Part shown: positions 37,834 to 58,700 of the stretch, piece after piece
How the letters are laid out: each line of letters opens with the position of its first letter
Position numbering within the stretch: the first letter of the stretch is position 1
From: Gammaproteobacteria bacterium
GTDB lineage: Bacteria; Pseudomonadota; Gammaproteobacteria; Ga0077536
DNA: 64,000 nucleotides
Assembly (NCBI GenBank): GCA_050184115.1
Contig: JBFXAQ010000001.1
Coordinates: 1,002,304 to 1,066,303 of the forward strand
Direction of reading: 5' to 3'
Notes under the pieces: generated by a model
What the model saw: only the letters and a program-made list of their open reading frames with translations
Told to the model about the DNA's origin: nothing
Database searches by the model: none
Translations under genes and position numbers: made by a program

Positions 37834-37851
37834 GGGTCGTACTCGTCCGGC

Positions 37852-39642: not shown

Positions 39643-39654
39643 GGAGGGTTCCCG

Positions 39655-40497: not shown

Positions 40498-40674
40498 TCA
40501 GAAGTCGATGCACCGACCCTTGCGCTCCCAGTCGCCGTAGCGGGTCGGTTCGAGACCCTTGGGGCCGCCGATTTCGCGCGGTCGTGGCGGCTCGTCCGGC
40601 GGTGTCGCCGGCGCTGCTGCGGAATCGTCGGCCGCCGGGCCCTGCTGGTCCGTTCGCTGGTCTTTCGAGTTCAT
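40498..40674 (-). CDS. DUF1674 / SDHAF4 (Sdh8)-like small protein, 58 aa; not in the ORF track
   Basis: Hand translation: MNSKDQRTDQQGPAADDSAAAPATPPDEPPRPREIGGPKGLEPTRYGDWERKGRCIDF. The C-terminal EIGGPKGLEPTRYGDWERKGRCIDF is the family signature. Immediately upstream of sdhC. Confidence 0.9.
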   Translation of the reverse strand: MNSKDQRTDQQGPAADDSAAAPATPPDEPPRPREIGGPKGLEPTRYGDWERKGRCIDF

Positions 40675-42826: not shown

Positions 42827-43536
42827 GGCGCCGCGTCGCGGCGCAGGTGGACGAGGTAGTTGACGCCGGGTTCGCGGACCACGCGCGCACGCCGCGTGAA
42901 CGGGTTGTAGAGCATGCCGCTGACGTCGAGCACGGCAAGCCCGCGCCGGCGCGCGGCGGCGGCCAGTTCCGAAGGCCGCACGAAACGGTTGTAGTCGTGG
43001 GTGCCGCGCGGCACCAGGCCGAGCACGTATTCCGCCGCGACGACGCCGAGTGCATAGGCGCGCGCCGTGCGGTTCAAGGTCGACACGAACAGGCTGCCGC
43101 CGGGCGCCAGCAGCGCGGCGCAGTCGGCGAGCAGGGCGTCGGCGTCGGGGACGTGCTCGACCAGTTCCATGCAGGTGACGACGTCGAAGCGGCCCGCTGC
43201 CTCCTGCGCAAGGTCGGCCGAGAGCAGCACGCGGTAATCGATGACGAGGCCGCCCTGCGCGGCGTGCTCGCGGGCGACCGTGATCAATTCGGGGCTGGCA
43301 TCGATGGCCGTCACCTGCGCGCCGGCACGCGCCAGCGCTTCGCTGAGCAGGCCGCCGCCGCAGCCGATGTCGGCAACGCGGGCGCCGGCGAGAGTGACGC
43401 GGTCGCCCACGTAACGGAGGCGACAGGGGTTGATGTCGTGAAGGGTGCGACTGGCGCCGTCCGGCTCCCACCAACAAGCCGCCAGGGCGGCGAAGTTGTC
43501 ACGTTCGGACGGATCGAGATTGACCTGGAGCGGCAT
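42823..43536 (-). CDS. ubiG: Ubiquinone biosynthesis O-methyltransferase
   Basis: WWEPDG..TLHDINP, DIGCGGGLLSE, TCMELVEHVPD, LVPRGTHDY. Confidence 0.96.
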   Translation of the reverse strand: MPLQVNLDPSERDNFAALAACWWEPDGASRTLHDINPCRLRYVGDRVTLAGARVADIGCGGGLLSEALARAGAQVTAIDASPELITVAREHAAQGGLVIDYRVLLSADLAQEAAGRFDVVTCMELVEHVPDADALLADCAALLAPGGSLFVSTLNRTARAYALGVVAAEYVLGLVPRGTHDYNRFVRPSELAAAARRRGLAVLDVSGMLYNPFTRRARVVREPGVNYLVHLRRDAAP

Positions 43537-43581
43537 GGCGCGGATGTTACCGGCCCGCCGCGCGGACGCAAGCCGGGGACT

Positions 43582-45252
43582 TCAGTTGGCCAGGACGCGT
43601 AGGACCCGGAAGCCGGTGTAGGCGTCGGCGGTGTCGGCGGCGAGCGCCGCGCGCGCGGCCGAACGGAGCGCACCGGCGTCGTCGGCGTAGGAGCCGCCGC
43701 GCACCACGCGCAGGGCGCCCTCGCCGCGGCGTACGCTGCCGTCGGCAGGCGCGCCGGCATGGTCGTCGAACCAACTGTCGGCGACCCATTCACGCACGTT
43801 GCCGGCCATGTGATAGAGACGAAAAGCGTTGCCGTCCAGGCTGCGGTCGTTCGCCGCGAGCGGGCGCCCGTTCGCCCCACCGTGGCCGAAACGGGCGTCG
43901 TCGGGTGCGAGCTGGTCGCGTCCGGAGGGATAGGCCGCCGTCGATCCCGCGCGCGCGGCGAACTCCCACTCCGCTTCGCTCGGCAGGCGATACTCCGCGC
44001 CGGTGAGTTCAGACAACCACGCGGCGTAGTCGCGGGCCAGGTACCAGTTGACGTTGACCGCCGGCAGCGCCGGTTCCGGCCAGGGTTGTACCGGGCAGTT
44101 GCGGCCGGTGTCCGCGCAGTAGCGCGCGAGTTCGGCCGCGCTGATCTCGAACATGCTGAGCGCGAAGGGGTCGCTGATGTCGACGGCATGACGCGGGGTT
44201 TCGTGTGCGCCTTCGCCGCCCATGTCGAACTGCCCGGCCGCGACGACCACGAGCGCCGGGCCACGGAAGGCATCGCCGACGACGTCGATACAGAACGGGA
44301 GGGCGGCGCCGACCAGGTCCCGGCTGCAATTGCTGCGCGCGGGTACCGACGACGGCGTGGTTGCCGGCGACGCATCCACGGGCGTTGGCGCGGCCAGTGC
44401 GCGCCGCGGTTCCAGCGGCAACGGACGGGCGGCCACCGCACCGGGCTCCGCGGGCGCCGGCAGGGCGGCGCCTTCGGGCGCGGCGCTCGGCACGTCGGTG
44501 TCGCGCGCCGTATCGTCGGCGGCAGGCGTCTCCAGCGGGTCGCCGTCCGGCTGCCGGCTGCGCGCTTCGTGCCATTCGCGTCGCGCGCGCTCGAGGCGGG
44601 CATCGTCGATGGCGAGACGGTCGGCGAAGTCGAGCAGGCGCTCCTGGGCATCGAGGGCGTCGCGTGGATCACCGAGATCCATCAACGCCGTTTCGCCCGC
44701 GATCTGCGCGAGGACGGCATCACCGAGACGGCGCAGCGCGCCGTGTTCGACCAGTTCGGCCCGCGCCGCAGCATCGAGGTCCTGCCACTCGGCGACGAAG
44801 CCGTTCAAGCTGTCCAGGTTCCACACGTTGACGGCGAGGAAACGTGCCACAGGGTCGGGTGCCGGGGCCGTCTCGTGCTGGGCAGCGGCGGGTGAAGCGG
44901 CCGGTGCGGGCGCGGCCGCCGGCCGCCACAGCCACCAGCCGATGCCGATGGCGGCGCAGAGCGCGACGATCACCACGGCGAGCAGCGGGCCGCGTCCGCC
45001 CGCGGCGGCGTTGGTCCCTAGATCGGCGGCAACCGCGGGGATGATTTCCTGGGTGGTGTCGCCCTCGTCGTCCTCGTAGGGAAACACCGTTGGTGATTCG
45101 GGCGCCGGCGCGGAGAAAGGCACGAGTTCACGCTCGCCGGCCACGACGGCGCCGATCAGCTCGCGCCGTTGCAGGCGATAGGCCTCGCGGTCGATGTCGC
45201 CGACCGCGTAGCCACGCGACAGGCCGCGCAACGTGTCCTTGCTCTGCGCCAC
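43582..45252 (-). CDS. Single-pass membrane protein with C-terminal FGE-sulfatase/SUMF1-like domain (556 aa)
   Basis: TM LLAVVIVALCAAIGIGWWLW; GPALVVVAAGQFDMG, YRLPSEAEWEFAARAG, YHMAGNVREWVAD, VVRGGSY, GFRV. No FGE catalytic Cys motif. Confidence 0.88.
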   Translation of the reverse strand: MAQSKDTLRGLSRGYAVGDIDREAYRLQRRELIGAVVAGERELVPFSAPAPESPTVFPYEDDEGDTTQEIIPAVAADLGTNAAAGGRGPLLAVVIVALCAAIGIGWWLWRPAAAPAPAASPAAAQHETAPAPDPVARFLAVNVWNLDSLNGFVAEWQDLDAAARAELVEHGALRRLGDAVLAQIAGETALMDLGDPRDALDAQERLLDFADRLAIDDARLERARREWHEARSRQPDGDPLETPAADDTARDTDVPSAAPEGAALPAPAEPGAVAARPLPLEPRRALAAPTPVDASPATTPSSVPARSNCSRDLVGAALPFCIDVVGDAFRGPALVVVAAGQFDMGGEGAHETPRHAVDISDPFALSMFEISAAELARYCADTGRNCPVQPWPEPALPAVNVNWYLARDYAAWLSELTGAEYRLPSEAEWEFAARAGSTAAYPSGRDQLAPDDARFGHGGANGRPLAANDRSLDGNAFRLYHMAGNVREWVADSWFDDHAGAPADGSVRRGEGALRVVRGGSYADDAGALRSAARAALAADTADAYTGFRVLRVLAN

Positions 45253-45303: not shown

Positions 45304-48300
45304 TCAGCTGAGGTCCATGACGACGCGGAAGCCGGTTGCCTCGTCGGCCTGGCCGTCGTGGTTCTTCTCCAGCGTGATGTCGCACTTGCTGAAGGTGTCC
45401 TCGAAGGCGCCGCCGCGGGCGACGACGCCGCTGCCGGAGGTCACCCATTCCTGGACGTTACCGACGTAGTTGTACAGGCCCCAGCCGTTCGGCTTGCCGG
45501 TGTTGACGCCCATCGTGCCCTGGCCCTTGAGCAATTGGCCGTTCTGTTCGAGGCGGCAGTTGTAGTCCTTCTTCGGCTGATCGCCGGCGGCCTCGGCAGC
45601 GTAGGTCCACTCGGCGATGGTGGGCAGGCGGAACTTCTCTCCGGTGCGTTCGGACAGCCACGCGACGTAGGCCTGGGCTTCCTCGACCGAAATGCCGGTG
45701 ATCGGCTGGCGTGCTTCCACGCCGCGGCGCGGTTCACAGCTCTTGCTCAGCACGCAGTAGCGGTTGTAATCGCCCACCGCGACCTCGAATTTGCCGATGG
45801 CGAAGGCCTTGTCGACGCCACTGCCCTTGGGCACGACCACCATGGTCGGGCCGCGCTGGTTGCCCGACACGAAGTAGAAACAGGTGCCCTTCTGGCGTTT
45901 GCCGTGCCCGGCGAGACGGGCCTCGCACGGGTCGGTAGCCGGCAGCGGCGGCGCGATCGGCCGGTCTCCGGTGTCGGTTGCGGTCCCGCCGGTGTCCGTC
46001 GGATGGAGCTTGGCCACCACGCGCGCGTGCTCCTTGCGGAACGTGCCGCTGTCCGCCCATACCGACAGGGCCTTCTCCATCGTCGCCAGAGCATCCTCGT
46101 AGGCGCCGGCCGTGTATTGCTTCTTGTAGGTGTCGAACAATTCCTTGGCGTCGCCGACGCGGGCGTTGAAAGTCGCCTTGAGGCGCACGATGTCCGGATG
46201 CTCGGCCTCGGACTCGTTGGCCTTCTTGAGCAGCTCGCGCGCCTCGCCGAGCATGGCCTTGTCCATGGCCGCGTTGACCTCGGCGGCGTAGCGCGATGGC
46301 GGCACTTCGAGCTTGACCAGTTCGATGGCGGCGATGAGCTGGTTGCCGGCGAACAACTCCTTCGCCTGCTCGATGACCGAGTTGGCGCCGGTGCCGGCGG
46401 ATTCCTTGAGGCCTTCGAGGCGCTGGCCCAGCGCTTGTGCCCACTGGCCCTCCGAGCGGCTGAAGACGCCCGGGTCGAGGACCTGGACTTCGGAGATCTT
46501 CGACATCACCTCGCCGAGGTCGAAGTTGCCGCCGCGCGCGAAGATCTTCTCGAGATCCTGCTTGTTGCCGTCGACGGTGTAGTCGCGCACGGCGTTCTTG
46601 CAGTCGAGCCGCTCCGGCTGCAGCTCGGCGCAGGCCTTGGCGAAACGCAGCGCGGCCGCGAAATCGGTCGCGGCGGCGCGTTGCGTGGCGAGCTTGTAGT
46701 AGGCCGCCGCGAGCATGCGTGGCGCCTCCTTCTCGACGAACGCGTCCTGCGTGTCACCCAACTCGACGCGCAGCGCGTCGAGGGTCTTCTGCGCGGCGAC
46801 GACGTCGTTGGCGCGGGCCTGGGTCTGGAAGGTCTCCTTGAGGCCGTCGACACGCGCGAGGCGCGCCTGTTCGGCCTGCTCACGCTCGAACGCCTCGGTC
46901 GCCGCGGCCAGGGCCGCGCGTTCGTCGGCGAGACCGGGCGCATCGGGTGCGAAGCGTTCGGCGTCGGCGAGCAGGTTGGCGCCCTCCGCGAAACGCTGTT
47001 CGCCGCGCATGGCGGTCGCGCGTTCGATGTAGGTCTGTGCGATGCGCCGACCGTTTTCGGCCAGCCACGGGTCGCCCGGCTCACCGAGCGCGATGATGTC
47101 CTCCATCTTCTGGCGCACGCTGGCACGCCAGTCGCGGTCGGCGGTCGGTTCCTGCAGCAGCTGCTCGATGTCGCGCTTGGCGTCGGCGACGAGCTTCTTC
47201 TCCTGTTCGACGACGAACTGCCGGCGGGAGTCCTCGAGCGACGCCAGGCTTGTCGCGAGCTCGTTCGCCCCGGGCAGGTCGATCAGGGCACGACGGGTGA
47301 CGTCCACGGCATCGTCCCACCGGTCGGCTTCGCCCATGCGGCGCGCGCCGTCGTTGATCGCCTGCGCCAGTGTGCCGCGCAACTCGTCGATGGCGGCGCT
47401 GCCCGGATTGAGCGCGGCGAGTTCTTCGAGGCCGGCCAGGGCCTGGTCGTAGGCGGCCGGTTCGAGTCCGAGGGTGCCGATCTGGGCGCGCACTTCGGCG
47501 AGGCGTTGGTCGAAGCGCGACTGGCGCTGCGCCCGCGCCGCCGTCCGCGCGGCGTCGTCGAGACCGCGCTCGGCCGCGACCCGGGCCTGTTCGGCGCCGA
47601 CGAGCGCGGTGACGTTGTCGCGCGGGGCGACCGCGACAGCCGCCGCCAAGGCCTGGTCGGCGGCGTCATAGCGGCCATCGTCGCGCGCCCCGTAGGCGCG
47701 TTGCAGCAGGGCCATCGCGACCTGGTCGCGCGCGTTCTGGGTGCGCACGTTGCGCGGCGCGATGGCGGCCAGGCGCTGGAGTGCCTGTTCGGCCTGCGGC
47801 GTGACTTCGCCACTGGCCACCGCCGCGGTGACGGCATTGCGCTCCGTGCTCACGGTGCCGTCGAACTGGACGCCGAGCGCGGCGGCGCGGGCGTTGAGTT
47901 CGTGCAGGCCGAGGCCACGCAGCAGGGACTTGAAGTCGCCACCCATCAGGGCGCTCTTGCCCCAGGCCTTGCTGCTCTCGAGTGCGGCGAGGTCCTTGAC
48001 CGCGAGCGGTTGCACCGTCGTGCGCAACTTCTCCAGCAACTCGTTGCCGGGATCGGCGCGGGCGAGATCGGCGATGGCACCGGCGACATCGACGTAGGCC
48101 GCGAGGCCTTCGTCCGAGTCCTCGGCCTGCTGGATGGCGGCAATCGCGGTCAGGATGCGCGCACGGGTCTGCGCGCGGTCGCGGGCGCCCGCAATCTTGT
48201 CGGTGAGGTTGGCGAGGTTGGCACTGTCGGGGATCAGGCCTAGACCGATCTGGCCGAGTTCGTCGGCGTAATCGTAGTCCTCGTTCTCGAGCGCGGTGTT

Positions 48301-50256
48301 GATGGCCGTGGCGTAGGCGCCGGGAATGCGGCGGTCGGTCAGCATGGCGTGCTTCGGATCGACCTGGCGCACCACGTTCATCGCGTCGAAGATGTCGTCT
48401 TCGCCGTCGACCGCGAGCAGGGCGCCATTCTCCAACGCCGTGTTGAACTTCTCGAACTGCTCGTTGAACAGCCGGTTCTCCGACTCCTGGATGTCGCGCT
48501 CGAGATCGGCGAGCACGCTCGAGTCCTTGTACACCGCCGACAATGCCTTGGCCTGTTCGACCGTCCGGCGTGCGCCGGTGAAGTCGAACTGTCCCTTGTC
48601 GACGGCGAACTGGGCGCGCGCGCGCCCTTCGAAGTAGCCGATGATCTCGTCCTTGGCCGCGGTGAAGATGCGGTCGCGCTTGTCCGCCGCGATGTCGTCG
48701 GTGGTGAGGTTGCCCAGCATGGTCTCGATCTGCGCCGCATCGCCCGATTTCGCCATCGCGATGCGGGCTTCGATGTCGCGGTTCTCGAGGTAGTTCTTGG
48801 CCGGGAAGAAACCCGCGATGATGACCAGGGCGGTGATCGCCGGCACCATGACGAAGGGGTTCTTCCACGGCGAGGTCGCGCCCTCGAATTCCTCGAGGAA
48901 CTGCCCGGTGCTCTGGCTGCGTCCTGCGCGCTCGAATGCCAGGCCGCGCTGCAGGCCCCGCCACTGCTTGCGCGTGAGGCCCTTGACCGGTTCTGGCGAG
49001 AGGCCGGCGTCACGCGCCTTGTTGGCCGGGATCTTGTTGAACGGGTGCTTGCCCGTGAGCAGTTCGTAGGCGACGCAGGCCAGCGCGTAGATGTCGTCGC
49101 GCGGATCGGGTTCCTCGCCCTCCAGCATCTCGAGACTGGCATAGGCCGGGGTCAGCGCGCCGAGTTTGCCTGGATCGAAGATGGTCGTCTCGCCCTCGGC
49201 CGCGCCCGGCGCCTTGACCGCGCGTGCGATGCCGAAATCGAGCACCTTCATCTGACCTTCCTTGGTGATGAAGCAGTTGCCGGGCTTGAAGTCCGAATGG
49301 ACGATGCTGCGGTCGTGGGCGTAGACGAGCGCGTTGCCAAGGCCCTGGACCATCGGGAACGCTTCGGCGAAGGGCAGCCCGCCCTTGGGCTTGACGACCT
49401 TCTTGATGAAGTCGTTCAGGGGCTCACCGTCGAGCACTTCCATGACGAGGAAAGCGAGGCCGTCCTCGGTCTGGTCGAAGTCATAGACGGTCGCGATGTT
49501 GGGGTGGGCGAGCTTCTGCTGGCGGCTCGCTTCGCGCTGCAGGGCGATGAAGGAATCGGGATGCTGCTTGAAATCCTCGTTGAGGACTTTCAGTGCGACT
49601 TCCGGTTTCTTGTCCTTGGCCCGGACCTTGATGAGATCCCTGCCGAGGTAGACCGCGCCCATGCCGCCCTGGCCGAGCACCTTGGTCAGTTCGAAACGGC
49701 CGCGCAGCACGCCGCCCGGTCCGAGGCGCGTAGTTGCCGCACCGGGCTCGGGTTTTGCCCAGTCGGTGCCGGTCTGGCCGGTATCGGTGCCACCGCTCGG
49801 CCACGACGAGCCGGTCTGGGTGCCGCTGTCCGAGCCGAGGTCGAAATCGATGCCGGTGGTGTGGCCGGACATCGGCGTCGCGGCAGCGGTGCCGTCGACG
49901 ATCTCGGTGGCGTCGTCGCCGGGCGGGGCGGTGCGTTCGACCCGCGTTGCGTCGTAGTTGTTGCCGGAGGTGATGTCGAGGATGCCGGTGTCGTCGCCGT
50001 CGCCCGCGTACTGCGTGCGTTCGTCGTCCTGGCCGCCGAGCGGCGCGGCTTCCACGTGACGCGCGACGCAGGCCCGCAAGCGCGCGTAGGTTTCGGTGTC
50101 GATGACGTCCTCGGTGACCGCCTGCTTGAGCTGGTCCATGATGGCGACCGCGGCCTGTGGCTTCTTGCGCAGCAGCTTGTCGATGTTCCCGGCGACCGAA
50201 TCGAACTCGATTTCGCGGCGCGACAGGCGCTCCAGTGTGGTCTTGAAATCAGCCAT
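45304..50256 (-). CDS. Membrane Ser/Thr (Hanks-type) protein kinase with long extracytoplasmic helical region and C-terminal FGE/SUMF1-like domain (1650 aa)
   Basis: LGQGGMGAVY, VALKVL, HSDFKPGN, KVLDFGIAR, DDIYALAC; one TM (FVMVPAITALVIIAGFF, about 48800-48860); C-terminal FRLPTIAEW, YVGNVQEWV, RGGAF, GFRV. Confidence 0.92.
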   Translation of the reverse strand: MADFKTTLERLSRREIEFDSVAGNIDKLLRKKPQAAVAIMDQLKQAVTEDVIDTETYARLRACVARHVEAAPLGGQDDERTQYAGDGDDTGILDITSGNNYDATRVERTAPPGDDATEIVDGTAAATPMSGHTTGIDFDLGSDSGTQTGSSWPSGGTDTGQTGTDWAKPEPGAATTRLGPGGVLRGRFELTKVLGQGGMGAVYLGRDLIKVRAKDKKPEVALKVLNEDFKQHPDSFIALQREASRQQKLAHPNIATVYDFDQTEDGLAFLVMEVLDGEPLNDFIKKVVKPKGGLPFAEAFPMVQGLGNALVYAHDRSIVHSDFKPGNCFITKEGQMKVLDFGIARAVKAPGAAEGETTIFDPGKLGALTPAYASLEMLEGEEPDPRDDIYALACVAYELLTGKHPFNKIPANKARDAGLSPEPVKGLTRKQWRGLQRGLAFERAGRSQSTGQFLEEFEGATSPWKNPFVMVPAITALVIIAGFFPAKNYLENRDIEARIAMAKSGDAAQIETMLGNLTTDDIAADKRDRIFTAAKDEIIGYFEGRARAQFAVDKGQFDFTGARRTVEQAKALSAVYKDSSVLADLERDIQESENRLFNEQFEKFNTALENGALLAVDGEDDIFDAMNVVRQVDPKHAMLTDRRIPGAYATAINTALENEDYDYADELGQIGLGLIPDSANLANLTDKIAGARDRAQTRARILTAIAAIQQAEDSDEGLAAYVDVAGAIADLARADPGNELLEKLRTTVQPLAVKDLAALESSKAWGKSALMGGDFKSLLRGLGLHELNARAAALGVQFDGTVSTERNAVTAAVASGEVTPQAEQALQRLAAIAPRNVRTQNARDQVAMALLQRAYGARDDGRYDAADQALAAAVAVAPRDNVTALVGAEQARVAAERGLDDAARTAARAQRQSRFDQRLAEVRAQIGTLGLEPAAYDQALAGLEELAALNPGSAAIDELRGTLAQAINDGARRMGEADRWDDAVDVTRRALIDLPGANELATSLASLEDSRRQFVVEQEKKLVADAKRDIEQLLQEPTADRDWRASVRQKMEDIIALGEPGDPWLAENGRRIAQTYIERATAMRGEQRFAEGANLLADAERFAPDAPGLADERAALAAATEAFEREQAEQARLARVDGLKETFQTQARANDVVAAQKTLDALRVELGDTQDAFVEKEAPRMLAAAYYKLATQRAAATDFAAALRFAKACAELQPERLDCKNAVRDYTVDGNKQDLEKIFARGGNFDLGEVMSKISEVQVLDPGVFSRSEGQWAQALGQRLEGLKESAGTGANSVIEQAKELFAGNQLIAAIELVKLEVPPSRYAAEVNAAMDKAMLGEARELLKKANESEAEHPDIVRLKATFNARVGDAKELFDTYKKQYTAGAYEDALATMEKALSVWADSGTFRKEHARVVAKLHPTDTGGTATDTGDRPIAPPLPATDPCEARLAGHGKRQKGTCFYFVSGNQRGPTMVVVPKGSGVDKAFAIGKFEVAVGDYNRYCVLSKSCEPRRGVEARQPITGISVEEAQAYVAWLSERTGEKFRLPTIAEWTYAAEAAGDQPKKDYNCRLEQNGQLLKGQGTMGVNTGKPNGWGLYNYVGNVQEWVTSGSGVVARGGAFEDTFSKCDITLEKNHDGQADEATGFRVVMDLS

Positions 50257-50364: not shown

Positions 50365-51093
50365 TCATGCCGCGGCGACCTCCACGACGCAGACCGTCAC
50401 ATTGTCGATGGCGCCCCGTTCGAGGGTCAGGTCGACCAGCGCACGCGCCGCTTCGGCCGGGGTGCCAGAGGCGAGCAGGCGCGCGATCTCGGGGTCCTTG
50501 ACGTGCTTGTCGAGACCGTCCGAACACAGCAGGAAACGGTCGCCGCCGGCCAGCTCGTACATGTCCATTTCCATTGCCAGCGAGTCGGTGACGCCGACCG
50601 CGCGCGTCACCATGTTGCCCGACGGGTGTCCCTCCGCCTCGCTGCGATCGATCAACCCCTTCTCGATGTAGGCCTCGATCTGCGTGTGGTCGGTGGTCAG
50701 CTGGTTGAACTCGCCGTCCCGCAGGCGATAGAGGCGGCTGTCGCCGGCCCACATCGTCACGGCATGGCGCCCGCGCATGAGCAGGATCACGACGGTGCTG
50801 CCACTGGTCTGGTTGTGCGCGTTGGCGACCTCGAACAGCCGCGCATTGACGTGCATGACGGCGTCTTCGACCTGGTCGACCAGCGGGGCCAGATCGTCCC
50901 CCAGGGTCAGCTTGCCGAGCGAATTGACGATGAGCTGGCTGGCGAGGTCGCCCGCCGAGTGGCCGCCCATGCCGTCGGCGACCACCCACAGGCCGTCGCC
51001 GCAGCGCTCCAGGCCGGAGTCCTCGTTCAGCTTGCGGACCTTGCCGACGTCGGAAATCAATGCCGACGTCCAGCTGAAGGGCTTGTCGCTCAT
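50365..51093 (-). CDS. PP2C-family Ser/Thr phosphatase (Stp1/PppA-like)
   Basis: DVGKVRKLNED, VADGMGGH, WAGDSRLY, LCSDGL, DNVT. ATG at 51093. Confidence 0.93.
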   Translation of the reverse strand: MSDKPFSWTSALISDVGKVRKLNEDSGLERCGDGLWVVADGMGGHSAGDLASQLIVNSLGKLTLGDDLAPLVDQVEDAVMHVNARLFEVANAHNQTSGSTVVILLMRGRHAVTMWAGDSRLYRLRDGEFNQLTTDHTQIEAYIEKGLIDRSEAEGHPSGNMVTRAVGVTDSLAMEMDMYELAGGDRFLLCSDGLDKHVKDPEIARLLASGTPAEAARALVDLTLERGAIDNVTVCVVEVAAA

Positions 51094-51187: not shown

Positions 51188-52087
51188 TCACCCGTCCGTC
51201 TTGAAATGCACGATTTCCTGCGGGTTCTCCGCGAACGAACGGCCGAGGCTGATCTTGCCGCTGCCGGTGAGGGGCATCTCCTCACGGCGCAGGAAGGCCT
51301 CGCTGCCATCGCAGAAGACATACGTGCCGTTGGTGCTCTGATCGATGATGAAGAACTTGCCCCGGCGGTGTTCGACGCGCACGTGCTGGCGCGAGGCGAG
51401 GGCTTCGGCCACGGCGATGTCGGCGGTCTTGCTGCGCCCCAGCACGACCTGGCTGCGTTCGGCGTCGACGGTAACGCGGTCATCGTGGTAGCGCAGGTCG
51501 AGCTGCGCGCGGTTGATCGGTTCGGGGATGACCCCGGTCGACATGCGCGTGACGTCTTCCTGCTGCCACAGCACTTCGAAGATGTCCATCGTCTCTTTCT
51601 TGCCCTTGACGGGCGCCCGGTCGATGAAGCGCGAGCTGGCCTTGAGGATCGGCGGCAGCTCGTCGATGGTCGACTGGGTGGTGATGATCTGGCCGGCCTT
51701 GGCCATCGAGGCCATGCGCGCGGCGACGTTGACCGCATCGCCGAAGACGTCACCCGCCTCCAGGATGGCCGGACCGTGATGGAGGCCGATACGGATGGCG
51801 AGCGAGATCTGACCGGCCGAGGGGCTTTCGACCACCTCGTCCTCCAGCATCTCGTGCATCTCGCAGGCGGCCGAGACCGCGCTCTCGGCGGTCGGGAAGG
51901 TGCACATGAGCTCGTCGCCGATGGTCTTGATGACCGAGCCGCCGTGGCGCTTGGTGACGTCCGTCAGCACCTGCAGGCAACTCGCCACCTGGGCCCGCGC
52001 CGGCCCATCGCCCAGGACCTCGTACAGGCGCGTACTGCCGCTGATGTCCGCGAACACGATGGTCAGGTGGGTCGTTTTGGGGGCCAT
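51188..52087 (-). CDS. Class III adenylate cyclase fused to a C-terminal FHA domain
   Basis: VFADISGST, IKTIGDELM, RIGLHHG, GDVFGDAVNVAARM: metal Asp pair, ATP-specifying Lys/Asp and Asn/Arg all present. FHA motifs LGRS, SRQH, STNGTYV. Confidence 0.92.
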   Translation of the reverse strand: MAPKTTHLTIVFADISGSTRLYEVLGDGPARAQVASCLQVLTDVTKRHGGSVIKTIGDELMCTFPTAESAVSAACEMHEMLEDEVVESPSAGQISLAIRIGLHHGPAILEAGDVFGDAVNVAARMASMAKAGQIITTQSTIDELPPILKASSRFIDRAPVKGKKETMDIFEVLWQQEDVTRMSTGVIPEPINRAQLDLRYHDDRVTVDAERSQVVLGRSKTADIAVAEALASRQHVRVEHRRGKFFIIDQSTNGTYVFCDGSEAFLRREEMPLTGSGKISLGRSFAENPQEIVHFKTDG

Positions 52088-52219: not shown

Positions 52220-52355
52220 CACGTTTCTGGCCGCGACGGCGAAGGGCGGGCGACCGGATCGGAACGTTCGCGCGGCGCCGCGCGCGATGTGCGCGAGTGT
52301 CCGGGCGCGTTACACTGCGCGCCGCCGGCGATGGACCAACAGAAGGAATTCGAAC

Positions 52356-53366
52356 ATGCGGTTGATACCTGTGCTCGGGGCGGTGGCGCTCGGCGCTCTG
52401 CTGATTCTCATCGGTGCGTTCGGTGCCCGTTGGTTGGGCCCGTCCGACGCCGAGGGCACGGTCGAACTCGTCGACAAGCCGGCAGCGCCGGCGCCGACGA
52501 CGGCTTTCGAGGCCCATATCGACGTCGACGCATTGCGCGAGCTGCTGGCCGTGCTGCCGGCGCAACAGCGCGCCCAGATCCTCGATGACGCCGATAACTT
52601 CGCCAAGTTCGTCGAGCAGGAGACGGTCAACCAGGCGGTCCTGGCGGCGGCCTACGCCAACGGCGCGGATCGCAACGAGGCTATCCAGGTACTGATGCAT
52701 CGCGCTGGCCAGCGGGTGCTGGCGGAGGCCTATCTCAACCAGGTGGTGCGCGGCAATCTCGACCCGGCGTTCCCGTCGGACGAGCAGGTGCGCGAAGCCT
52801 ACGACAAGAACCCGGACGCCTTCCGCGTGCCGCGACGCATGCACATCTGGCAGATCTTCCTGCCCTATGGCGATGGCGAAGACGCGGCCAAGCGCAAGCA
52901 GGCCAGCGAACTCGCCAAGCGGCTCGTCGCCGACCTGCGCGCCGGCAAGACCACCTTCGAAGCGGCGGCGAAGCAATATTCCGGGCACCAGCAGAGCCGC
53001 CTCAACGAGGGCTACATGGGGCTGATCCGGGTCGACGAAATGTTGCCGGCAGTGGCGGGTACGGCGGAGGCCTTGCCGGTCGACGGCATCAGCGATCCCA
53101 TCGAAACCGCCGACGGACTCCATATCATCAAGCGCGGACAGGCCATCGAATCCGAGATGCTGGCCTTCGAGGCCATCGAACCGCAGGTCCGCGAGCGTCT
53201 GCGCCGTGAGGCCGCGCTGAAAATCCGCCAGGCGGCGTTGGAGAAGATTGCCGCGGAGTTTCCCGTCGACCGCGGCGACGGCGACGCGGCGGCCTGGCGA
53301 GCGGCCCTCGAGGACCAGCCGGCCGCAACGGCCGCGAACCCCGCTGCTCCCGCAAGCGAGCCGTAG
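52356..53366 (+). CDS. Parvulin/PpiC-type peptidyl-prolyl isomerase (PrsA/SurA-like foldase), N-terminally anchored
   Basis: Hydrophobic N-terminus; EQVREAYDKNPDAF, HIWQIFL, FEAAAKQYS, GYMG, ISDPIETADGLHIIK; AAGGA ribosome-binding site. Confidence 0.85.
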   Translation: MRLIPVLGAVALGALLILIGAFGARWLGPSDAEGTVELVDKPAAPAPTTAFEAHIDVDALRELLAVLPAQQRAQILDDADNFAKFVEQETVNQAVLAAAYANGADRNEAIQVLMHRAGQRVLAEAYLNQVVRGNLDPAFPSDEQVREAYDKNPDAFRVPRRMHIWQIFLPYGDGEDAAKRKQASELAKRLVADLRAGKTTFEAAAKQYSGHQQSRLNEGYMGLIRVDEMLPAVAGTAEALPVDGISDPIETADGLHIIKRGQAIESEMLAFEAIEPQVRERLRREAALKIRQAALEKIAAEFPVDRGDGDAAAWRAALEDQPAATAANPAAPASEP

Positions 53367-53462
53367 CACGACTGCACCACCACGGTGCGGCAAGCCGTGC
53401 GCGCGGTTCGGGCGGTCAAGTTTGTTGCGCTGCGGAGTTCGCGGGCAGGGGCAATTTCGCGT

Positions 53463-53492
53463 TTGCTGGCAAGGCGTTTGCGTGGGTATACT
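53463..53492 (+). promoter_or_regulatory. Candidate tpsB promoter (overlapping sigma54-like and sigma70-like readings)
   Basis: TGGCAAGGCGTTTGC (53467-53481) is GG-N10-GC. TTGCTG-N18-TATACT (53463-53492) overlaps it. Confidence 0.45.
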
Positions 53493-53572
53493 CCGCCGCT
53501 GAGGGCGGATAGCTCTTGGACCGGATGGGTTCCAGGGGATTCAGGGAGTTAGGGGGACAACGTAGATTGCTC

Positions 53573-55549
53573 ATGCGAATCGGAGCCACCTACCGCTGGG
53601 CGCGTGATCGCCATCGTCCCGGATGCCTGAGCGCCGTCCTGCTGCTCGCCGCCACGACCACGAGCCATGCCGCCTTCATCGAGGCACCGGACGCGGTGCG
53701 GCCGGGTGCCGTCCGCCCCGGTACGGGCAACGCCGTGCAGATCGCCGATCGCTCCGCCCTGCCGATTCCGTCGCGCCCCGGTGCCCTGCGCCCCGGCGAC
53801 GGCGCCGATTTCGAAGTCAACGACACCTCGCTCGCACAGCTGGCGGACCTGCCGGACGCGGCGCGCCCCGGTGCCATCCGGCCAGGCGAGGACCGCAAGC
53901 TGATCCCGCCGGAACCGCCCGCGGAACCCTTGTTCGAAGTGCCGCCCGTGGCCGATCGCCCGTTGGAGATCGACGAGGGCGAGCTCATCGAGGTATCCAG
54001 TTTCGTGCTCACCGGCGCGCAGGATCGGCCGGAATTCGATATCGAGCTCAGCGCCGTGCAGGGCATCGTCGACGCCGCGTTGGCCGATCGGCCCGACGGC
54101 TTCACCGTCGGCCGCCTGCAGGAAGTCGCTGACGAGGTCACCAAGTATTACCGCGAGCACGGTCTGATCCTGGCCCAGGCTTTCGTGCCCGTGCAGACAG
54201 TGGAAGACGGCGCGGTCAAGTTGCAGGTCATGGAAGGCCTGCTCGGGCGGGTCGTCACCGAGGGCAACGAACTCTACAGCGCGGAAGTGCTCGAAGCGCC
54301 GTTCCGCTCACTCGTCGGACAACCGATCACCAAGGACGCAACCGAGTCGGCCCTGCTGCGGGTTTCGGACCTGCCGGGCCAGTCGTCATTCGGCGTGTTC
54401 CAGCCGGGTATCGAGGTCGGCACCGCCGACATGGTCGTCAAGGTGCAGGACGAGGACCGCCTGGAGCTGGCCTTGCGCGCGGACAACCACGGCATCAGCG
54501 AGACCGGTCAGAACCGCTACCTCGGCAAGGTGACCTGGAACAATCCGCTCGGCCAGGGCGATCGTCTCGATGTCACCGCGCAGCACACCGCGGTCCCGGA
54601 CAACACGTTCTTCTACGCCGTCGACTACGAAGTGCCGGTGACGGGTCTCTACGACAGCGTCTTCAACATCGGCATCAGCCGCAACCAGTTCGACGTCGGC
54701 GGGCAGTTCCGCGACTCCGACATCTACAGTGATATCCGCAACTATTACGTCGCGCTCAGCAACGACCTCATCCGCGGCCGCCTGATGAATCTCAGCGTCG
54801 GTGCGCGCTTGTCGAAGAAGCGCAGCGGCACCAAGTCCTTCGGCCGCGGCGTCAGCATCGACAGCCTCACGGTTGCCGCGTTCGAACTCAACTTCGACAA
54901 CGTCGACGCCCGCTTCGGCGGCCTCAACGCGGCCTATTTCGAGATCGCGCACGGCTTCAACGATTTCCTCGGCGCCATGGGCAAGACGCCGGCGTCGATC
55001 CAACCGTCGCGCCAGAGCGGCACTGGCGAGTTCGCCGTGGGTGAATTCAACAAGGTGTTCCTCAGTGCGTCGCGGTTCCAGTCGCTGACGCCGCTGTGGG
55101 AGAAACTCGACAACCACAACCTGCTGCTCACCTTCGAAGCGATGTGGTCACCCGACCTCCTCGTGCCGCTCGAGCAGTACAGCGTCGGCGGTCCGAACAA
55201 CGTGCGCGGTTATCGTCCGACCGAGCAATTGTTCGACCGCGCCCTGTTCGCCTCCCTCGAATGGATCATCAATGCCCCGTTCATCGCCGATGCGCCGGCT
55301 TTCGGCAATCGCACCTGGGGTGAATTGATGCAGTTTTCAATCTTTTACGATTGGTCCACGGGCCAGTTGAACAGTGCGCTGCCGACGGAGAAGCAATCCG
55401 AACGCTTCAACGCCATCGGTTTTGCCCTCTCGTTCAACAACCCGAAGGTCTTTTCGAGCAAGCTCACGATCGCCACGCCGGTGGGCAGCCCACGCCCGGA
55501 GAACGACAAACGACCGCAATACTGGGTCGATTTGAACTTCTTCTTCTGA
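53573..55549 (+). CDS. ShlB/FhaC/HecB family two-partner secretion transporter (TpsB)
   Basis: Signal peptide; POTRA (LQEVADEVTKYYREHGLILAQAFVPVQ); ADNHG, NNPLGQGD, GGPNNVRGY (VRGY motif); C-terminal Phe. Confidence 0.93.
   Translation: MRIGATYRWARDRHRPGCLSAVLLLAATTTSHAAFIEAPDAVRPGAVRPGTGNAVQIADRSALPIPSRPGALRPGDGADFEVNDTSLAQLADLPDAARPGAIRPGEDRKLIPPEPPAEPLFEVPPVADRPLEIDEGELIEVSSFVLTGAQDRPEFDIELSAVQGIVDAALADRPDGFTVGRLQEVADEVTKYYREHGLILAQAFVPVQTVEDGAVKLQVMEGLLGRVVTEGNELYSAEVLEAPFRSLVGQPITKDATESALLRVSDLPGQSSFGVFQPGIEVGTADMVVKVQDEDRLELALRADNHGISETGQNRYLGKVTWNNPLGQGDRLDVTAQHTAVPDNTFFYAVDYEVPVTGLYDSVFNIGISRNQFDVGGQFRDSDIYSDIRNYYVALSNDLIRGRLMNLSVGARLSKKRSGTKSFGRGVSIDSLTVAAFELNFDNVDARFGGLNAAYFEIAHGFNDFLGAMGKTPASIQPSRQSGTGEFAVGEFNKVFLSASRFQSLTPLWEKLDNHNLLLTFEAMWSPDLLVPLEQYSVGGPNNVRGYRPTEQLFDRALFASLEWIINAPFIADAPAFGNRTWGELMQFSIFYDWSTGQLNSALPTEKQSERFNAIGFALSFNNPKVFSSKLTIATPVGSPRPENDKRPQYWVDLNFFF
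53687..53887 (+). repeat. Three imperfect RPGA[V/L/I]RPG peptide repeats in the TpsB N-terminus
   Basis: PDAVRPGAVRPG (53687-53722), PSRPGALRPG (53768-53797), PDAARPGAIRPG (53852-53887). Confidence 0.9.
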
Positions 55550-55571
55550 GCGGGCACTCGACCCGTCGGCG

Positions 55572-55599
55572 GGGTGCACGGTTGCTGGGCCGTGCACCC
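55572..55599 (+). terminator. Hairpin after tpsB (terminator or processing site)
   Basis: Perfect 10-bp stem GGGTGCACGG-N8-CCGTGCACCC, 22 nt after the stop. No U-tract. Confidence 0.4.
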
Positions 55600-55670
55600 G
55601 CATGGTCACCGGGTGGTGCGTAGCACCGCTTTCGCAGGCGCGTGACATTCGCGAGGTAGTGGAAATCCGG

Positions 55671-55714
55671 TGTGAAGTGATTCACGGACCCGCCAACTAC
55701 CTGATAACTAAACT
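55671..55714 (+). promoter_or_regulatory. CRP-family binding site plus -10 element (class II CRP-type promoter) upstream of tpsA
   Basis: TGTGA-AGTGAT-TCACG (55671-55686) matches TGTGA-N6-TCACA at 9 of 10 positions. TAAACT at 55709-55714 puts the site centre at about -42. GGAGG ribosome-binding site at 55761-55765. Confidence 0.7.
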
Positions 55715-55776
55715 GGCCCGACTTCAGAAACGGGCGCGCGGCGCATCGAGTGCGCCAGCCGGAGGGTGTTGACGTC

Positions 55777-58700
55777 ATGAGCAGCCGTCATTTCGAGCCG
55801 AACGCGGCAGGGACGAATGGGCCCGCCAGTTCACTGAACCCGCTGTCACGCGCAGTCCGTCTCGCCCTTGTGCCGGGCGTGGTCCTGGGCCTCGGACCGC
55901 AAGCGGTCGTCGCCGGGCCGACCGGTGGCCAGGTGCGCGCCGGCCAGGCGGCCATCACCCAGAGCGGGCCGGTCACCACCATCTCCCAGCAGTCCGCGAG
56001 GGCTGCACTCGACTGGCAGAGCTTCAACGTCGCCAAGCACGAGACCGTCCAGTTCCAGCAACCCAGCGCACGCGCCGCCACCCTCAACCGCATCTTCGAC
56101 CAGAACCCGAGCGAGATCTTCGGCCAGGTCAAGGCCAACGGCCGCGTCGTGTTGATGAATCCCAATGGGGTGTTCTTCAAGCCCGGCGCGCGGGTCAACG
56201 TCGGCAGCCTGGTGGCCGGCGCCATGCAGGTCGGCATCGACGACTTCATGCGCGGCAGCTACAGCCTGGAGGCGTTGAAGAACGCCGGCGGGCGGGTCGT
56301 CAACCAGGGCACCATCGAAGCCACCGACGGCGACGTCGCCCTGGTCGGCACCAGCGTTGCCAACGAGGGCGTCATCGTCGCCACCGCCGGGCGCGTGCAG
56401 CTCGCCGCCGGTGAGAAGGTCACGGTCGACTTCGACGGGGACGGCTTGCTGCGTTTCACCGTCGACGAGGCGGTGCTCGAAAATGCCAAGGCGATTGACG
56501 ACCAGGTTGCCAACACCGGGCAGATCGTCGCCGAGGGTGGCGACGTGCTCATCACCGCCAGCGCCGCCGACGGCGTGTTCAAGAACGCCATCAACAACAG
56601 CGGTGTCATCCGCGCCGGGCGGGTGGAGAACCGCGGTGGCAAGGTCATGCTGGTCGGCATGGGGCCGGGGGCGTCGGTGCTCAACACCGGGCAGATCGAT
56701 GCTTCCGCGGCCGACGCCATGAGCAGTGGCGGCGCGGTGCGAGTGAGCGCGGCGAACATCTCCAATGTCGGCGACATGCGTGCCGACGCGGTTGGTGGCG
56801 AAGGCGGCTCCGTGCACCTCCTGTCGACGAATACCACGCTCAACAGCGGCACGATTTCGGCCACCAGCGCGAGCGGTCACGGTGGCGAGGCACGGGTCCT
56901 CGGCGACAAGGTCGGCGTGGTCGGCGAGGCGGTGGTCGACGTCAGTGGCGCCACCGGCGGCGGCGAAGCGCTGATCGGCGGTGACTACCAGGGCAGCAAT
57001 CCGGACATCGCCAACGCACGGGTGACCGTCGTCGGCGCACAGGCCCGCATCGACGCCAGCGCCACAGGCGACGGCGACGGCGGCAAGGTCATCGTGTGGG
57101 CGGATGGCACCACGCGTTATGCAGGCACGATCGAGGCGCGCGGCGGCGCCGACGGCGGCGATGGTGGGTTCGCCGAGGTATCGGGCAAGAATCACCTGGA
57201 TTTCGAGGGTGACGCCGATCTCTCCGCGCCGCAAGGCGCGACTGGCCGCCTGCTGCTCGATCCGAAGGATATCCTCGTCGCGGATGTCGACCCGGGTCCG
57301 GCCGACAACACGATCGTCGACGCCACGGACCTCGCGGACTTCGGCGATCAATTCACCGATGTGCCGGACGAGAGCAGCTTCATTTCGACAGCGAACCTCG
57401 TCACCCTGCTCGACAGCGCCGATGTCATTCTGAAGGCGAACAACGACATCACCATCGACGACGCCGTCGACGCATCGGGCAATGGCAACGACCATGGTCT
57501 CGACCTCGCGGCCGGCCGCAGCATCGCCGTCAATGCCGATGTCACGCTGCGCGGCGGATTCAGCGCCACCGCCAATTCGGACGACGCCGCGGTCGTCACC
57601 GCCCAGCGAGACGCCGGCGCCGGCGCCTTCACCATGGCCGATGGCGTGACCATCGATACGACCGCCGGAGCCGCGCCCGGTAATATCGACATCACGGTCG
57701 CCGCCGGTGCCGGTGGCGGGCAGACATCCGGCGACATCACCCTCGCCAACCTCGATGCCGGTACCGCCACGGTCACCATTGCGCAGGATGGCAAGACCGA
57801 CGGCAGCGACATCGTTCGCACGGCCACGTCACAGATCACCGCAGATACGCTCGCTCTCAGCGTCAGCGATGCGCTCAACGCTTCGGGCGCCATCGGCGCC
57901 ACGGGTGTCGGCAACGCCATCGCGACTGACGTCGCCACGCTCACCGCATCGACCGTGCAGGGCGGAATCTACGTCACCGAGGCGAATGACCTGGCGGTCG
58001 GCGCCGCCGGCGTGACGACGGGCGGTACCGCGGCGGGCGAAATCGTGTTGACCGCGGGCGGTACGCTCACCCTCGGCGGCGACATCGATTCCACGGACGC
58101 GCCGATCACGCTGACCGCGGGCAATCTCGTGAACGCCGCGAATGCCATCGATGCTGGTACGAACACGGTCAAGCTCGTCGCCAACAGTGGCAACGCGATG
58201 AGCATCAACGGCGCCAGCGCGTTCGACGTCTCGACGGCCGAGGTCGCGGCCATCACGGCCGGCACGTTGCACTTCCAGACGCTGGGCGCGACGGACGACA
58301 TCTCGATCGAGAACACGAATTTCGGCGTCAGAAACGTGAAGCTCGAGAGCGCGCGGGACATTCTCGACGAAACGCCTGGCGACGACACCACGGACGCGAC
58401 CCAGGTTACGACCACGGGCACCCTGACGCTCGATGCCGGCCGCAATATCGGCAGCGGTACGGATGGCCTGGCCGACCTCGACATCGCCGGGGCTACCGCC
58501 GTCACCATCCTCGCCGGCGGCAGTGTCGATCTGAACACCTCCACGGCGTTCAACAGCTTCTCGGGAACGTTCAGCCCGGTGGCAGATGCGGTCGACGTGA
58601 ATATCACCGGTAGTACGATTATCGATATCGACGAGACCGGCAATCAGCTGCAGATCAACAGCATCAACGATGCCGCGCTCACCGTCCAAATCGCATCGTT

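Follow-up and report, generated by a model that had tools for sequence, protein, structure and literature searches.

Cross-talk between eukaryote-like serine/threonine kinases and cyclic nucleotides is poorly documented in bacteria. The locus described here, which lies in a window of 64,000 nucleotides (the whole stretch of DNA that was analyzed), raises the question whether one small protein could connect the two, since a class III cyclase domain and an FHA domain are joined in a single polypeptide whose gene adjoins those of a receptor kinase, a phosphatase and a secretion system for a giant adhesin. This neighborhood makes it probable that the cyclase-FHA protein converts a signal from the kinase into cAMP, and the evidence for the individual steps is considered in the following sections.

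Domain layout and catalytic residues of the cyclase-FHA protein

The cyclase-FHA gene occupies positions 51188 to 52087 of the minus strand (stop codon included) and encodes 299 amino acids. The coordinates had been given in a sequence-only reading of this DNA, and on the minus strand they match an open reading frame that opens with ATG. The start codon is supported by M1, which is nearly invariant (at least 90 % conserved) in an alignment of 59 relatives, and the length lies between 286 and 308 residues in all but one of the best 120 relatives. The protein is composed of a short-arm, class IIIc-like adenylyl cyclase catalytic domain (residues 4–175, positions 51563–52078, minus strand), assigned from Pfam, phmmer searches of the PDB, Foldseek and conservation; an interdomain linker (residues 176–194, positions 51506–51562, minus strand) that is predicted to be disordered, with a pLDDT below 50 at residues 176–190; and a C-terminal FHA domain (residues 195–299, positions 51191–51505, minus strand), assigned from Pfam, alignments with FHA domains of known structure and residue invariance. 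Pfam reports Guanylate_cyc (PF00211) at residues 4–166 (E 1.7e-20; 73.9 bits, cut-off 21.9) and FHA (PF00498) at residues 214–257 (E 2e-10; 41.4 bits, cut-off 20.7), and both matches are far beyond chance. The AF2 model contains two globular domains (mean pLDDT 86.3, pTM 0.56). A search for membrane segments by 19-residue Kyte-Doolittle hydropathy found none in the cyclase-FHA protein, whose peak mean is 0.88 compared with 2.27 for the single transmembrane segment of the neighboring kinase; this agrees with the earlier claim that such a segment is absent, and the protein is predicted to be soluble.

The motifs on which the sequence-only reading relied are all present, namely VIKTIGDELM, which holds K54 and D58, and AGDVFGDAVNVAARM, which holds D113, N120 and R124, as well as G217-R218, S232-R-Q-H235 and N253-G254 of the FHA domain. 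The metal-binding aspartates D14 (in FADISGST) and D58 (in KTIGDE) align with those of 3mr7 and Ma1120, the matches of the catalytic domain in a phmmer search of the PDB. The K/D/A triad of Ma1120, whose exchange for E, G and Y has been used to switch this adenylyl cyclase towards GTP, corresponds in the alignment to K54, D113 and A123, and the KDA>EGY mutant has structures of its own. D14, K54, D58, D113, N120 and R124 are invariant among close relatives and are kept in 133 to 139 of 141 diverse relatives (D14 in 138, D58 in 139, the specificity pair K54 and D113 in 136 and 135, N120 in 135, R124 in 133). Following the numbering of mammalian adenylyl cyclases, we take N120 and R124 to be transition-state residues and K161-G-K163 to be the phosphate-binding hairpin. 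These positions are invariant in 59 close relatives; in a wider set of 119 sequences K161 is found in 117 and the others in all, and in the diverse set K161 occurs in 106 sequences (Arg in another 26) and K163 in 115 (Arg in another 14). Across the 141 diverse relatives, strong purifying selection acts on all catalytic residues.

In sequence and fold, the catalytic domain is closest to the short-arm class IIIc cyclases Ma1120 of Mycobacterium avium, Rv1900c/LipJ and Rv1264, with phmmer E values of 1e-16 to 2e-8. Foldseek aligned the model with Ma1120 at a target TM of 0.85–0.88, and its E values for Ma1120, Rv1900c, CyaB and CyaC range from 1e-13 to 1e-10; pLDDT is mostly 84–96 across the catalytic domain, which has the catalytic palm fold. 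As in the mycobacterial cyclases, only a short segment separates GxHxGP from the specificity aspartate, and the cyclase-FHA protein keeps the canonical N-x3-R spacing, which is shifted by two residues in Ma1120. The regulatory parts differ: Ma1120-Cat has none, LipJ carries an alpha/beta-hydrolase and Rv1264 a pH-sensing N-domain, and an FHA domain occurs in none of them. The match to the Ma1120 triad and the conservation of the catalytic set support the earlier view that this is an intact class III cyclase of ATP type. A fused double cyclase-FHA unit in one family member and tandem gene pairs at three loci fit a dimeric working unit; for a dimer that makes cAMP they are only suggestive.

The gene neighborhood and its conservation

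On the minus strand, the cyclase-FHA gene is followed by the gene of a PP2C-type serine/threonine phosphatase (242 aa, 50365–51093; Pfam PP2C_2 and PP2C, E 7.7e-11; NCBIfam Stp1/IreP-type, E 1.7e-59) and by that of a receptor Hanks-type serine/threonine kinase (1650 aa, 45304–50256; Pkinase, E 9.4e-35), both assignments being backed by synteny. The kinase is composed of a helical N-terminal module, a threonine-rich segment (residues 76–185), the kinase domain (residues 189 to about 460), a single transmembrane segment recognized by hydropathy (residues 468–486), a long extracytoplasmic repeat region and an FGE-sulfatase domain (residues 1481–1646). With its G-loop GQGGMG, VALK, HSDFKPGN and DFG it is apparently active, as is the co-encoded phosphatase. 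Downstream of the kinase gene, a further minus-strand gene conserved in synteny (43582–45252) encodes a membrane-anchored protein with an FGE-sulfatase domain (556 aa, transmembrane segment at about residues 90–108; Pfam and hydropathy); a homology between its N-terminal part and that of the kinase was considered and dropped (BLASTP E 0.065, not significant). The divergent plus-strand genes encode a parvulin-type peptidyl-prolyl isomerase (52287–53366; Pfam Rotamase and synteny), a TpsB outer-membrane transporter of the ShlB/FhaC type (53516–55549; Pfam ShlB and POTRA_2), the exact starts of both being uncertain, and TpsA (55777–64000), a giant exoprotein that carries a TPS secretion domain at its N-terminus and whose reading frame exceeds the end of the window and is stop-free from 55708 for more than 2,700 codons within it.

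The sequence-only reading had placed the cyclase-FHA gene first in an operon with the kinase and the phosphatase. The gene order stands, neighboring genes being 94 and 108 nt apart, and an operon is suggested by this order and by a search for terminator-like sites in the two gaps, which found none. A promoter and terminator scan yielded nothing of use, since its sole terminator-like match in the cluster fell within the coding sequence of PP2C and its counts did not reach those expected from shuffled sequence; an Rfam search of 43–56 kb gave no match.

The order cyclase-FHA, PP2C, kinase is kept in 27 to 29 of 29 close loci, and the cluster of these three genes and the FGE-sulfatase gene, with the divergent parvulin, TpsB and TpsA genes, is fixed in the lineage; it is chromosomal, syntenic and tied to the secretion system in dozens of genomes. 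The phosphatase gene lies downstream of the cyclase gene in all 29 close loci, the kinase is near it in 27 of them, and TpsB adjoins the module in 24; with a different gene order it is also found at loci L038, L087 and L106. Among 62 distant loci (40–54 % identity), where neighbor frequencies are read against an assumed genome background, PP2C was found in 10 and a kinase within about 6 kb, in several gene orders, in 20, being absent within this distance from the other two thirds. A Hanks kinase is the only recurrent neighbor of the cyclase-FHA gene across the family. Fusions of the protein to a kinase or a PP2C phosphatase, which would have served as a Rosetta stone, were also sought; what the longer family members contain instead are duplicates of the cyclase or of the cyclase-FHA unit.

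Predicted phosphothreonine recognition and its proposed coupling to cAMP synthesis

The FHA domain contains G217, R218, S232, R233, H235 and S251-T-N253-G-T255, and the five canonical phosphothreonine-binding residues are invariant in all 141 diverse relatives. Its motifs GR, SRxH and SxNGT align with both FHA domains of Rv1747 and with those of OdhI and GarA, Rv1747 being the nearest FHA protein of solved structure by sequence, followed by GarA and OdhI; in the AF2 model the domain forms a beta-sandwich of 10 strands (pLDDT 91–95). The proposal that the residues for phosphothreonine binding are retained is thus borne out by invariance and alignment, which support a role as putative phosphothreonine reader.

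Three candidate ligands were chosen by conservation only. The first is T180 in the linker motif D178-x-T180-R-M-S-T184 (codon at 51548–51550), a candidate ligand supplied by the protein itself. T180 is present in 119 of 119 close and 137 of 141 diverse relatives, despite the low pLDDT of residues 176–190, and this conservation is what suggests that it may be phosphorylated. The residue at +3 is not consistently hydrophobic, and that at +2 is so in the diverse set. Docking of the linker onto the FHA domain was looked for in the AF2 model and none was seen, linker pLDDT being below 50 and pTM 0.56. The second candidate, a possible pT-x-x-I docking ligand, is the tail motif PTVFPYxDDEGD-T-T-Q-E-I of the FGE-sulfatase protein, conserved in an alignment of 18 orthologues, and the third is the N-terminal threonine-rich segment of the kinase.

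The reading of the cyclase-FHA protein as a converter of phosphothreonine into cAMP, already put forward in the sequence-only reading, is the best one, because the ATP-type residues are intact, the FHA residues invariant, the protein soluble by prediction and the order with kinase and PP2C kept; its support is comparative. In its full form, that of a soluble homodimer-type cyclase gated by threonine phosphorylation, with the kinase as writer, PP2C as eraser and a likely CRP-family output at tpsA, we hold it to be slightly favored, with a probability of roughly 0.55. The course of events that we infer is as follows. An envelope signal would be sensed by the large extracytoplasmic region of the kinase, and the activated kinase would phosphorylate a threonine that is then bound by the C-terminal FHA domain. 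The leading candidate for this acceptor is T180 of the enzyme's own linker, which may be read in trans by the partner subunit, so that the binding of phosphorylated T180 would bring or lock the catalytic domains into a productive head-to-tail dimer; dimerization of Chk2 through its FHA domain and phosphorylated T68 offers a parallel. An increase in cAMP would follow, and PP2C would return the switch to its initial state. If this holds, the linker threonine would act as a phospho-switch across the whole family, in more than 1,000 soluble bacterial adenylyl cyclases.

Alternatively, as the sequence-only reading had suggested in outline, the FHA domain may dock on phosphothreonines of a partner, either in the threonine-rich segment or the activation loop of the kinase or in the FGE-sulfatase tail, and thereby cluster the cyclase at the membrane and raise local dimer formation and cAMP. 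Residues 76–185 of the kinase contain 16 % threonine, compared with 5.8 % overall, and include the conserved motifs DDATEI, TTGIDFDL and TGTDW; the acidic tail motif GD-T-T-Q-E-I(I/L/M) has the hydrophobic +3 residue that FHA domains classically prefer, and within the close subfamily the genes of the cyclase-FHA protein, the kinase and the FGE-sulfatase protein are kept together. However, the partner motifs are confined to this subfamily whereas T180 is family-wide, and many family members have neither gene next to them, so that we regard localization by docking as possible but rather unlikely, and rank the own-linker explanation at least as high. The two are compatible with each other.

A second alternative draws on GarA and OdhI, the nearest FHA matches after Rv1747. 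Phosphorylated T180 or T184 might fold in cis onto the FHA domain of the same chain and switch off either the enzyme or the interaction of the FHA domain with a partner, in which case the kinase would lower and PP2C raise cAMP. Cis closure of phosphorylated GarA and OdhI is established and is also cited in PMC6733907, and the approximately 15 residues between T180 and the first FHA strand would suffice for it. The sequence does not tell cis from trans, but the double unit fused in one protein and the paired tandem genes suggest that regulation acts on the dimer, and such autoinhibition appears improbable. GarA and OdhI resemble the cyclase-FHA protein in that they bind a phosphothreonine of their own flexible extension, for which T180 is the candidate here; they differ in that their self-ligand is N-terminal, and the FHA domains of GarA, OdhI and Rv1747 are stand-alone or attached to a transporter, without a cyclase.

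A CRP-type box upstream of tpsA and related systems

For the predicted cAMP, a likely output in this lineage is a CRP-family activator acting at tpsA. A CRP-type palindrome, TGTGAAGTGATTCACG, lies upstream of this gene (55671–55686, plus strand), and a -10-like TAAACT at 55709–55714 puts its center near -42, the distance of class II promoters. Taken by itself, the window would be expected by chance to contain one site with no more than one mismatch, as it does. In 12 orthologous loci as well as the window, a box with no more than two mismatches is located 84–110 nt upstream of tpsA, a thirteenth locus has a perfect box at 140 nt, and the box is the only invariant island in the alignment of the tpsA intergenic regions (mean identity 41 %). 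The box was absent from the rearranged loci L038, L087 and L106, and none was found in the divergent cyclase/parvulin promoter. A 5' hairpin noticed by eye after the tpsA -10 was rejected, as RNAalifold gave no consensus pairs. Neither a CRP homologue (phmmer with E. coli CRP) nor any other cNMP-binding reading frame (the same search and jackhmmer with the cNMP domain) was found in the window, and by phmmer and jackhmmer cNMP-binding genes adjoin the cyclase-FHA gene in four of 108 loci, all of them distant, which are too few to give strong support. CRP-type boxes can also be recognized by regulators insensitive to cAMP, for example Clp of Xanthomonas. We only tentatively propose a dedicated sensory circuit for two-partner secretion, in which the kinase, through its repeat and FGE-sulfatase ectodomain and with the FGE-sulfatase protein as a helper, would sense the envelope or the state of TpsA and the signal would pass via phosphothreonine and cAMP to a CRP-family activator that drives tpsA from a class II promoter.

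That the protein is instead a defense-type, Pycsar-like or other non-cAMP cyclase, or a catalytically silent FHA adaptor, is very improbable: PADLOC gave PycC matches (best E 1e-11) and the kinase matches the PD-T4-6 and MAD6 models through its kinase domain, but the PycC matches are weak and exceeded by the Pfam class III match (E 1.7e-20), the K/D/A triad is shared with Ma1120, an adenylyl cyclase, the catalytic residues are strongly constrained by purifying selection, the window contains no adjacent gene for a cNMP-binding effector, such as one in which this domain is combined with a TM or TIR domain, and the cluster is chromosomal, syntenic and secretion-linked.

Early domain surveys (Pallen et al. 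2002; Ohmori and Okamoto 2004) reportedly list cyanobacterial proteins with FHA and class III cyclase domains, Synechocystis Cya1 being an example. Their domain order is reportedly the reverse, with the FHA domain N-terminal, and we know of no demonstrated role for this domain. In Pseudomonas aeruginosa, the receptor Hanks kinase PpkA, the PP2C phosphatase PppA and the FHA protein Fha1 are encoded beside a type VI secretion system (T6SS) and control it. The present locus likewise combines a kinase, a PP2C phosphatase and an FHA protein next to secretion genes. These, however, are of type Vb (TpsB/TpsA), and T6SS families were sought among the scanned neighbors without a match, the genes found being those of parvulin, TpsB and TpsA; moreover, unlike Fha1, the FHA protein bears an enzymatic domain, and its predicted effect is on a second messenger and transcription rather than on machine assembly.

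As a mechanistic precedent for the gating of a nucleotide cyclase by an FHA domain, the literature searched offers only DgcB of Bdellovibrio, an FHA-GGDEF diguanylate cyclase activated by a phosphothreonine peptide of its own flexible tail (PMC6733907). Both proteins join an FHA domain to a nucleotide cyclase, which is dimer-dependent in DgcB and predicted to be so here, and have a phosphatase encoded nearby. DgcB makes c-di-GMP through a GGDEF domain, has an N-terminal FHA domain and uses T14 of an N-terminal tail as ligand, for which T180 of the linker would be the candidate counterpart, whereas Pfam finds a class III domain followed by a C-terminal FHA domain here. The kinase of DgcB is not adjacent to its gene, in contrast to the clustered kinase of the present locus, where kinase, phosphatase, candidate phospho-acceptor, candidate docking motifs and putative transcriptional output all lie within 20 kb and are conserved in dozens of genomes. 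The same literature contained no study of the FHA-adenylate cyclase architecture or of a link between TPS and serine/threonine kinases, and no description of a relay from a Hanks kinase via cAMP and CRP to type Vb secretion; in papers that had looked promising, "adenylate cyclase" referred only to a two-hybrid assay or "FHA" to filamentous haemagglutinin.

The architecture itself is not rare, and databases already label family members as adenylate/guanylate cyclase or FHA protein. At E ≤ 1e-30 the family comprises 1,197 clusters, nearly all of about 300 amino acids. Its members are found in Gamma-, Beta- and Deltaproteobacteria, Ignavibacteriota and Calditrichia, wastewater organisms such as Accumulibacter among them, and with a family of this size and spread, a result on one member would serve to annotate many genes.

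Domain architecture and catalytic site

The cyclase-FHA gene (51188-52087, minus strand, ATG start) encodes a 299-aa protein. Pfam assigns residues 4-166 to a class III cyclase (E 1.7e-20) and residues 214-257 to an FHA domain (E 2e-10), and every motif quoted in the sequence-only reading was found in the protein. The reported lack of a TM segment also holds, with a hydropathy peak of 0.88 (19-residue mean) versus 2.27 at the one TM of the kinase encoded nearby. AF2 modelling on an alignment of 59 relatives (mean pLDDT 86.3) gave two well-defined domains connected by a linker modelled as disordered (residues 176-190 with pLDDT <50).

The best-supported reading, put forward before database searches, is that of a putative phosphothreonine-to-cAMP converter whose gene is the first of a kinase and phosphatase cluster. 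Domain architecture, conserved catalytic and binding residues, synteny and a conserved DNA box are directly established; for all biochemical steps, we infer a relay from kinase to cAMP in which the kinase and the PP2C phosphatase would gate a soluble adenylyl cyclase activity, the FHA domain would read phosphothreonine (most probably T180 on the other subunit, alternatively a membrane partner), and cAMP would feed a CRP-type promoter of the adjoining two-partner secretion system in this lineage. The protein joins known kinds, namely FHA-gated nucleotide cyclases and Hanks kinase/PP2C/FHA triads beside secretion systems, and founds no new category; the relay is of moderate interest because the entire circuit is compact and testable.

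Of the solved structures, 3mr7 and the Ma1120 adenylyl cyclase of Mycobacterium avium come nearest to the cyclase domain, ahead of Rv1900c/LipJ and Rv1264 (Foldseek target TM 0.85-0.88). Specificity residues were located by comparing the alignments to wild-type Ma1120 and to its 'KDA to EGY' specificity-switch mutant, both available in the PDB. K54, D113 and A123 are the alignment partners of the mutated K, D and A and thus form an ATP-type triad. The metal-binding residues D14 and D58, N120 and R124 with their canonical i/i+4 spacing, and the K161-G-K163 hairpin are likewise retained. The catalytic residues are invariant or almost so in 119 close relatives, and D14, K54, D58, D113, N120 and R124 are kept in 133-139 of 141 diverse relatives (representatives of 50%-identity clusters), which bears out the claim of an intact ATP-type site; signs of a degenerate or pseudo-cyclase were not seen in the catalytic domain. 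The stretch from GxHxGP to the specificity Asp is short, as in the short-arm mycobacterial enzymes. Weak PADLOC matches to Pycsar/PycC (best E 1e-11) were ascribed to homology among class III cyclases in general; a Pycsar-type effector was not found near the gene.

The protein is not an isolated fusion. When 1.84 billion cluster representatives were searched exhaustively, 1,197 proteins matched at E<=1e-30, the best 150 of which are nearly all full-length (about 300 aa) with 40-63% identity. Genome matches stem from uncultured Gammaproteobacteria, Deltaproteobacteria, Magnetococcales, Hyphomicrobiaceae, Ignavibacteriota, Calditrichia and Betaproteobacteria (Accumulibacter, Rhodoferax, Sideroxydans, Methyloversatilis, Sulfuricella), the locus closest to the window being that of an activated-sludge gammaproteobacterial MAG (L001, 96% identity). 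Database labels read merely 'adenylate/guanylate cyclase domain-containing' or 'FHA domain-containing', and a literature search for the architecture found no study.

Predicted phosphothreonine recognition and dimerization

The FHA loops G217-R218, S232-R233-x-H235 and S251-T-N253-G-T255 align with those of Rv1747 FHA-1 and FHA-2, OdhI and GarA, and G217, R218, S232, R233, H235 and N253 are invariant in all 141 diverse relatives. The phosphothreonine-binding residues are thus kept, as had been proposed, and the domain should be a functional phosphothreonine reader.

Three candidate ligands are suggested by conserved motifs. The linker motif D178-x-T180-R-M-S-T184 next to the FHA domain is conserved despite the disorder modelled for its segment, T180 occurring in 119/119 close and 137/141 diverse members, and is best read as a candidate phospho-acceptor, for which the Bdellovibrio FHA-GGDEF enzyme DgcB, activated by a phosphopeptide of its own tail (PMC6733907), is a direct precedent. 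In the FGE-sulfatase protein encoded in the cluster, the cytoplasmic tail (within the N-terminal ~90 residues) contains an acidic motif that is conserved, PTVFPYxDDEGD-T-T-Q-E-I(I/L/M). Its +3 residue is hydrophobic, and the motif, which resembles a pT-x-x-I FHA ligand, is a candidate docking site. Finally, the low-complexity segment preceding the kinase domain (kinase residues 76-185; 49702-50031, minus strand; 16% Thr versus 5.8% in the whole protein) contains the conserved islands DDATEI, TTGIDFDL and TGTDW, possible autophosphorylation or docking sites.

A natural single-chain fusion of two cyclase-FHA units (family member P0121) and tandem gene pairs in three related loci (L054 6995-9391, L098 5605-7900, L105 5798-7864) are taken as evidence for a predicted dimeric unit. 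The second copy in L054 reads KTIVNE and has lost the second metal Asp, a possible sign of asymmetric pseudo-heterodimers akin to mammalian C1/C2.

The kinase and phosphatase gene cluster

Downstream of the cyclase-FHA gene, the genes for PP2C (51093-50365, after a 94-nt gap), a 1650-aa Hanks kinase (50256-45304, 108-nt gap) and the 556-aa FGE-sulfatase protein with one TM (45252-43582, 51-nt gap) follow on the same minus strand, and a terminator scan found no terminator-like sites in the three gaps, in agreement with the proposed operon. In the kinase, a Thr-rich N-terminal segment precedes the kinase domain, whose catalytic motifs are readable; a single TM (residues 468-486), about 1,150 extracytoplasmic residues and a C-terminal FGE-sulfatase domain complete the protein.

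Among 29 close loci (>=58% identity), the kinase is present in 27, PP2C in 29 and TpsB in 24; the corresponding numbers for 62 distant loci (40-54% identity with sufficient flank) are 20, 10 and 3. Clustering of the ORFs around the distant loci recovered kinase and PP2C as the sole recurrent real families. Since a proteobacterial genome encodes few Hanks kinases, the kinase linkage would be a large enrichment over this assumed background.

The cluster has housekeeping genes at its flank: a methyltransferase and HAD phosphatase pair (42170-43581, minus strand) directly downstream of the FGE-sulfatase gene, and succinate dehydrogenase genes (37054-40670, minus strand), including those for the flavoprotein (37855-39654) and the cytochrome b subunit (40038-40670). 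It is therefore chromosomal and on no obvious mobile element.

Two-partner secretion genes and the CRP-type box

Divergent from the cyclase cluster and co-conserved with it are genes for a parvulin-type PPIase, TpsB and TpsA (52287-64000, plus strand). TpsA is a giant exoprotein whose stop-free frame of >2,700 codons runs past the window end, its C-terminus lying outside. The PPIase may act as a periplasmic chaperone of TpsA, a role that Par27 plays for Bordetella FHA (filamentous haemagglutinin). The secretion link recurs in other gene orders in three distant loci (L087, L106, L038), the first two reading cyclase-FHA, kinase, TpsB, TpsA on a single strand.

The tpsB-tpsA intergenic region contains the CRP-type palindrome TGTGAAGTGATTCACG (TGTGAA-N4-TTCACG; 55671-55686), the sole site with <=1 mismatch from TGTGA-N6-TCACA in the 64-kb window. 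With 0.85 such sites expected per window, a lone match is at chance level; what gives the box weight is its conservation. Twelve orthologous loci and the window have a box with <=2 mismatches 84-110 nt ahead of tpsA, and in a thirteenth locus, L029, a perfect box lies at 140 nt (orthologous box positions: L001, L002, L011-L016, L019, L023, L029, L032); 10 of 21 sites with <=1 mismatch in the window and 1.4 Mb of loci fall at this position. The box and a -10-like TAnnAT 22 nt downstream (55709-55714) are the only invariant islands in the intergenic alignment (41% mean identity). By this spacing, the centre of the box falls near -42, as in class II CRP-dependent promoters, and a class II activator-dependent promoter is accordingly predicted upstream of tpsA.

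The box fits cAMP as the putative product and tpsA as the putative target. This fit has three limits: some CRP-family proteins do not sense cAMP, no CRP homologue was found encoded in the window, and the rearranged loci lack the box. Cyclic nucleotide-binding neighbours occur in four distant loci in all and are anecdotal: an MscS-type channel carrying a cNMP-binding domain, encoded immediately upstream of cyclase-FHA (L082 5249-6928, L095 5394-6986), and a CRP orthologue plus a cNMP-binding/rhodanese protein nearby (L087 1739-2407 and 4423-5469; L106 1764-2396 and 4387-5397).

A perfect 10-bp inverted repeat, GGGTGCACGG N8 CCGTGCACCC (55572-55599), without a T-run, lies 23 nt past the tpsB stop and could be a transcript-end or processing hairpin dividing tpsB from the tpsA promoter. 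In the rearranged Pseudomonadales-type loci L087 (~6915-6960) and L106 (~6925-6970), a shared, conserved stretch, AAACGGTGGAAAAyAGCsGC..CACGCTATATTCTT, just upstream of cyclase-FHA may represent a promoter or operator unlike the CRP-type box.
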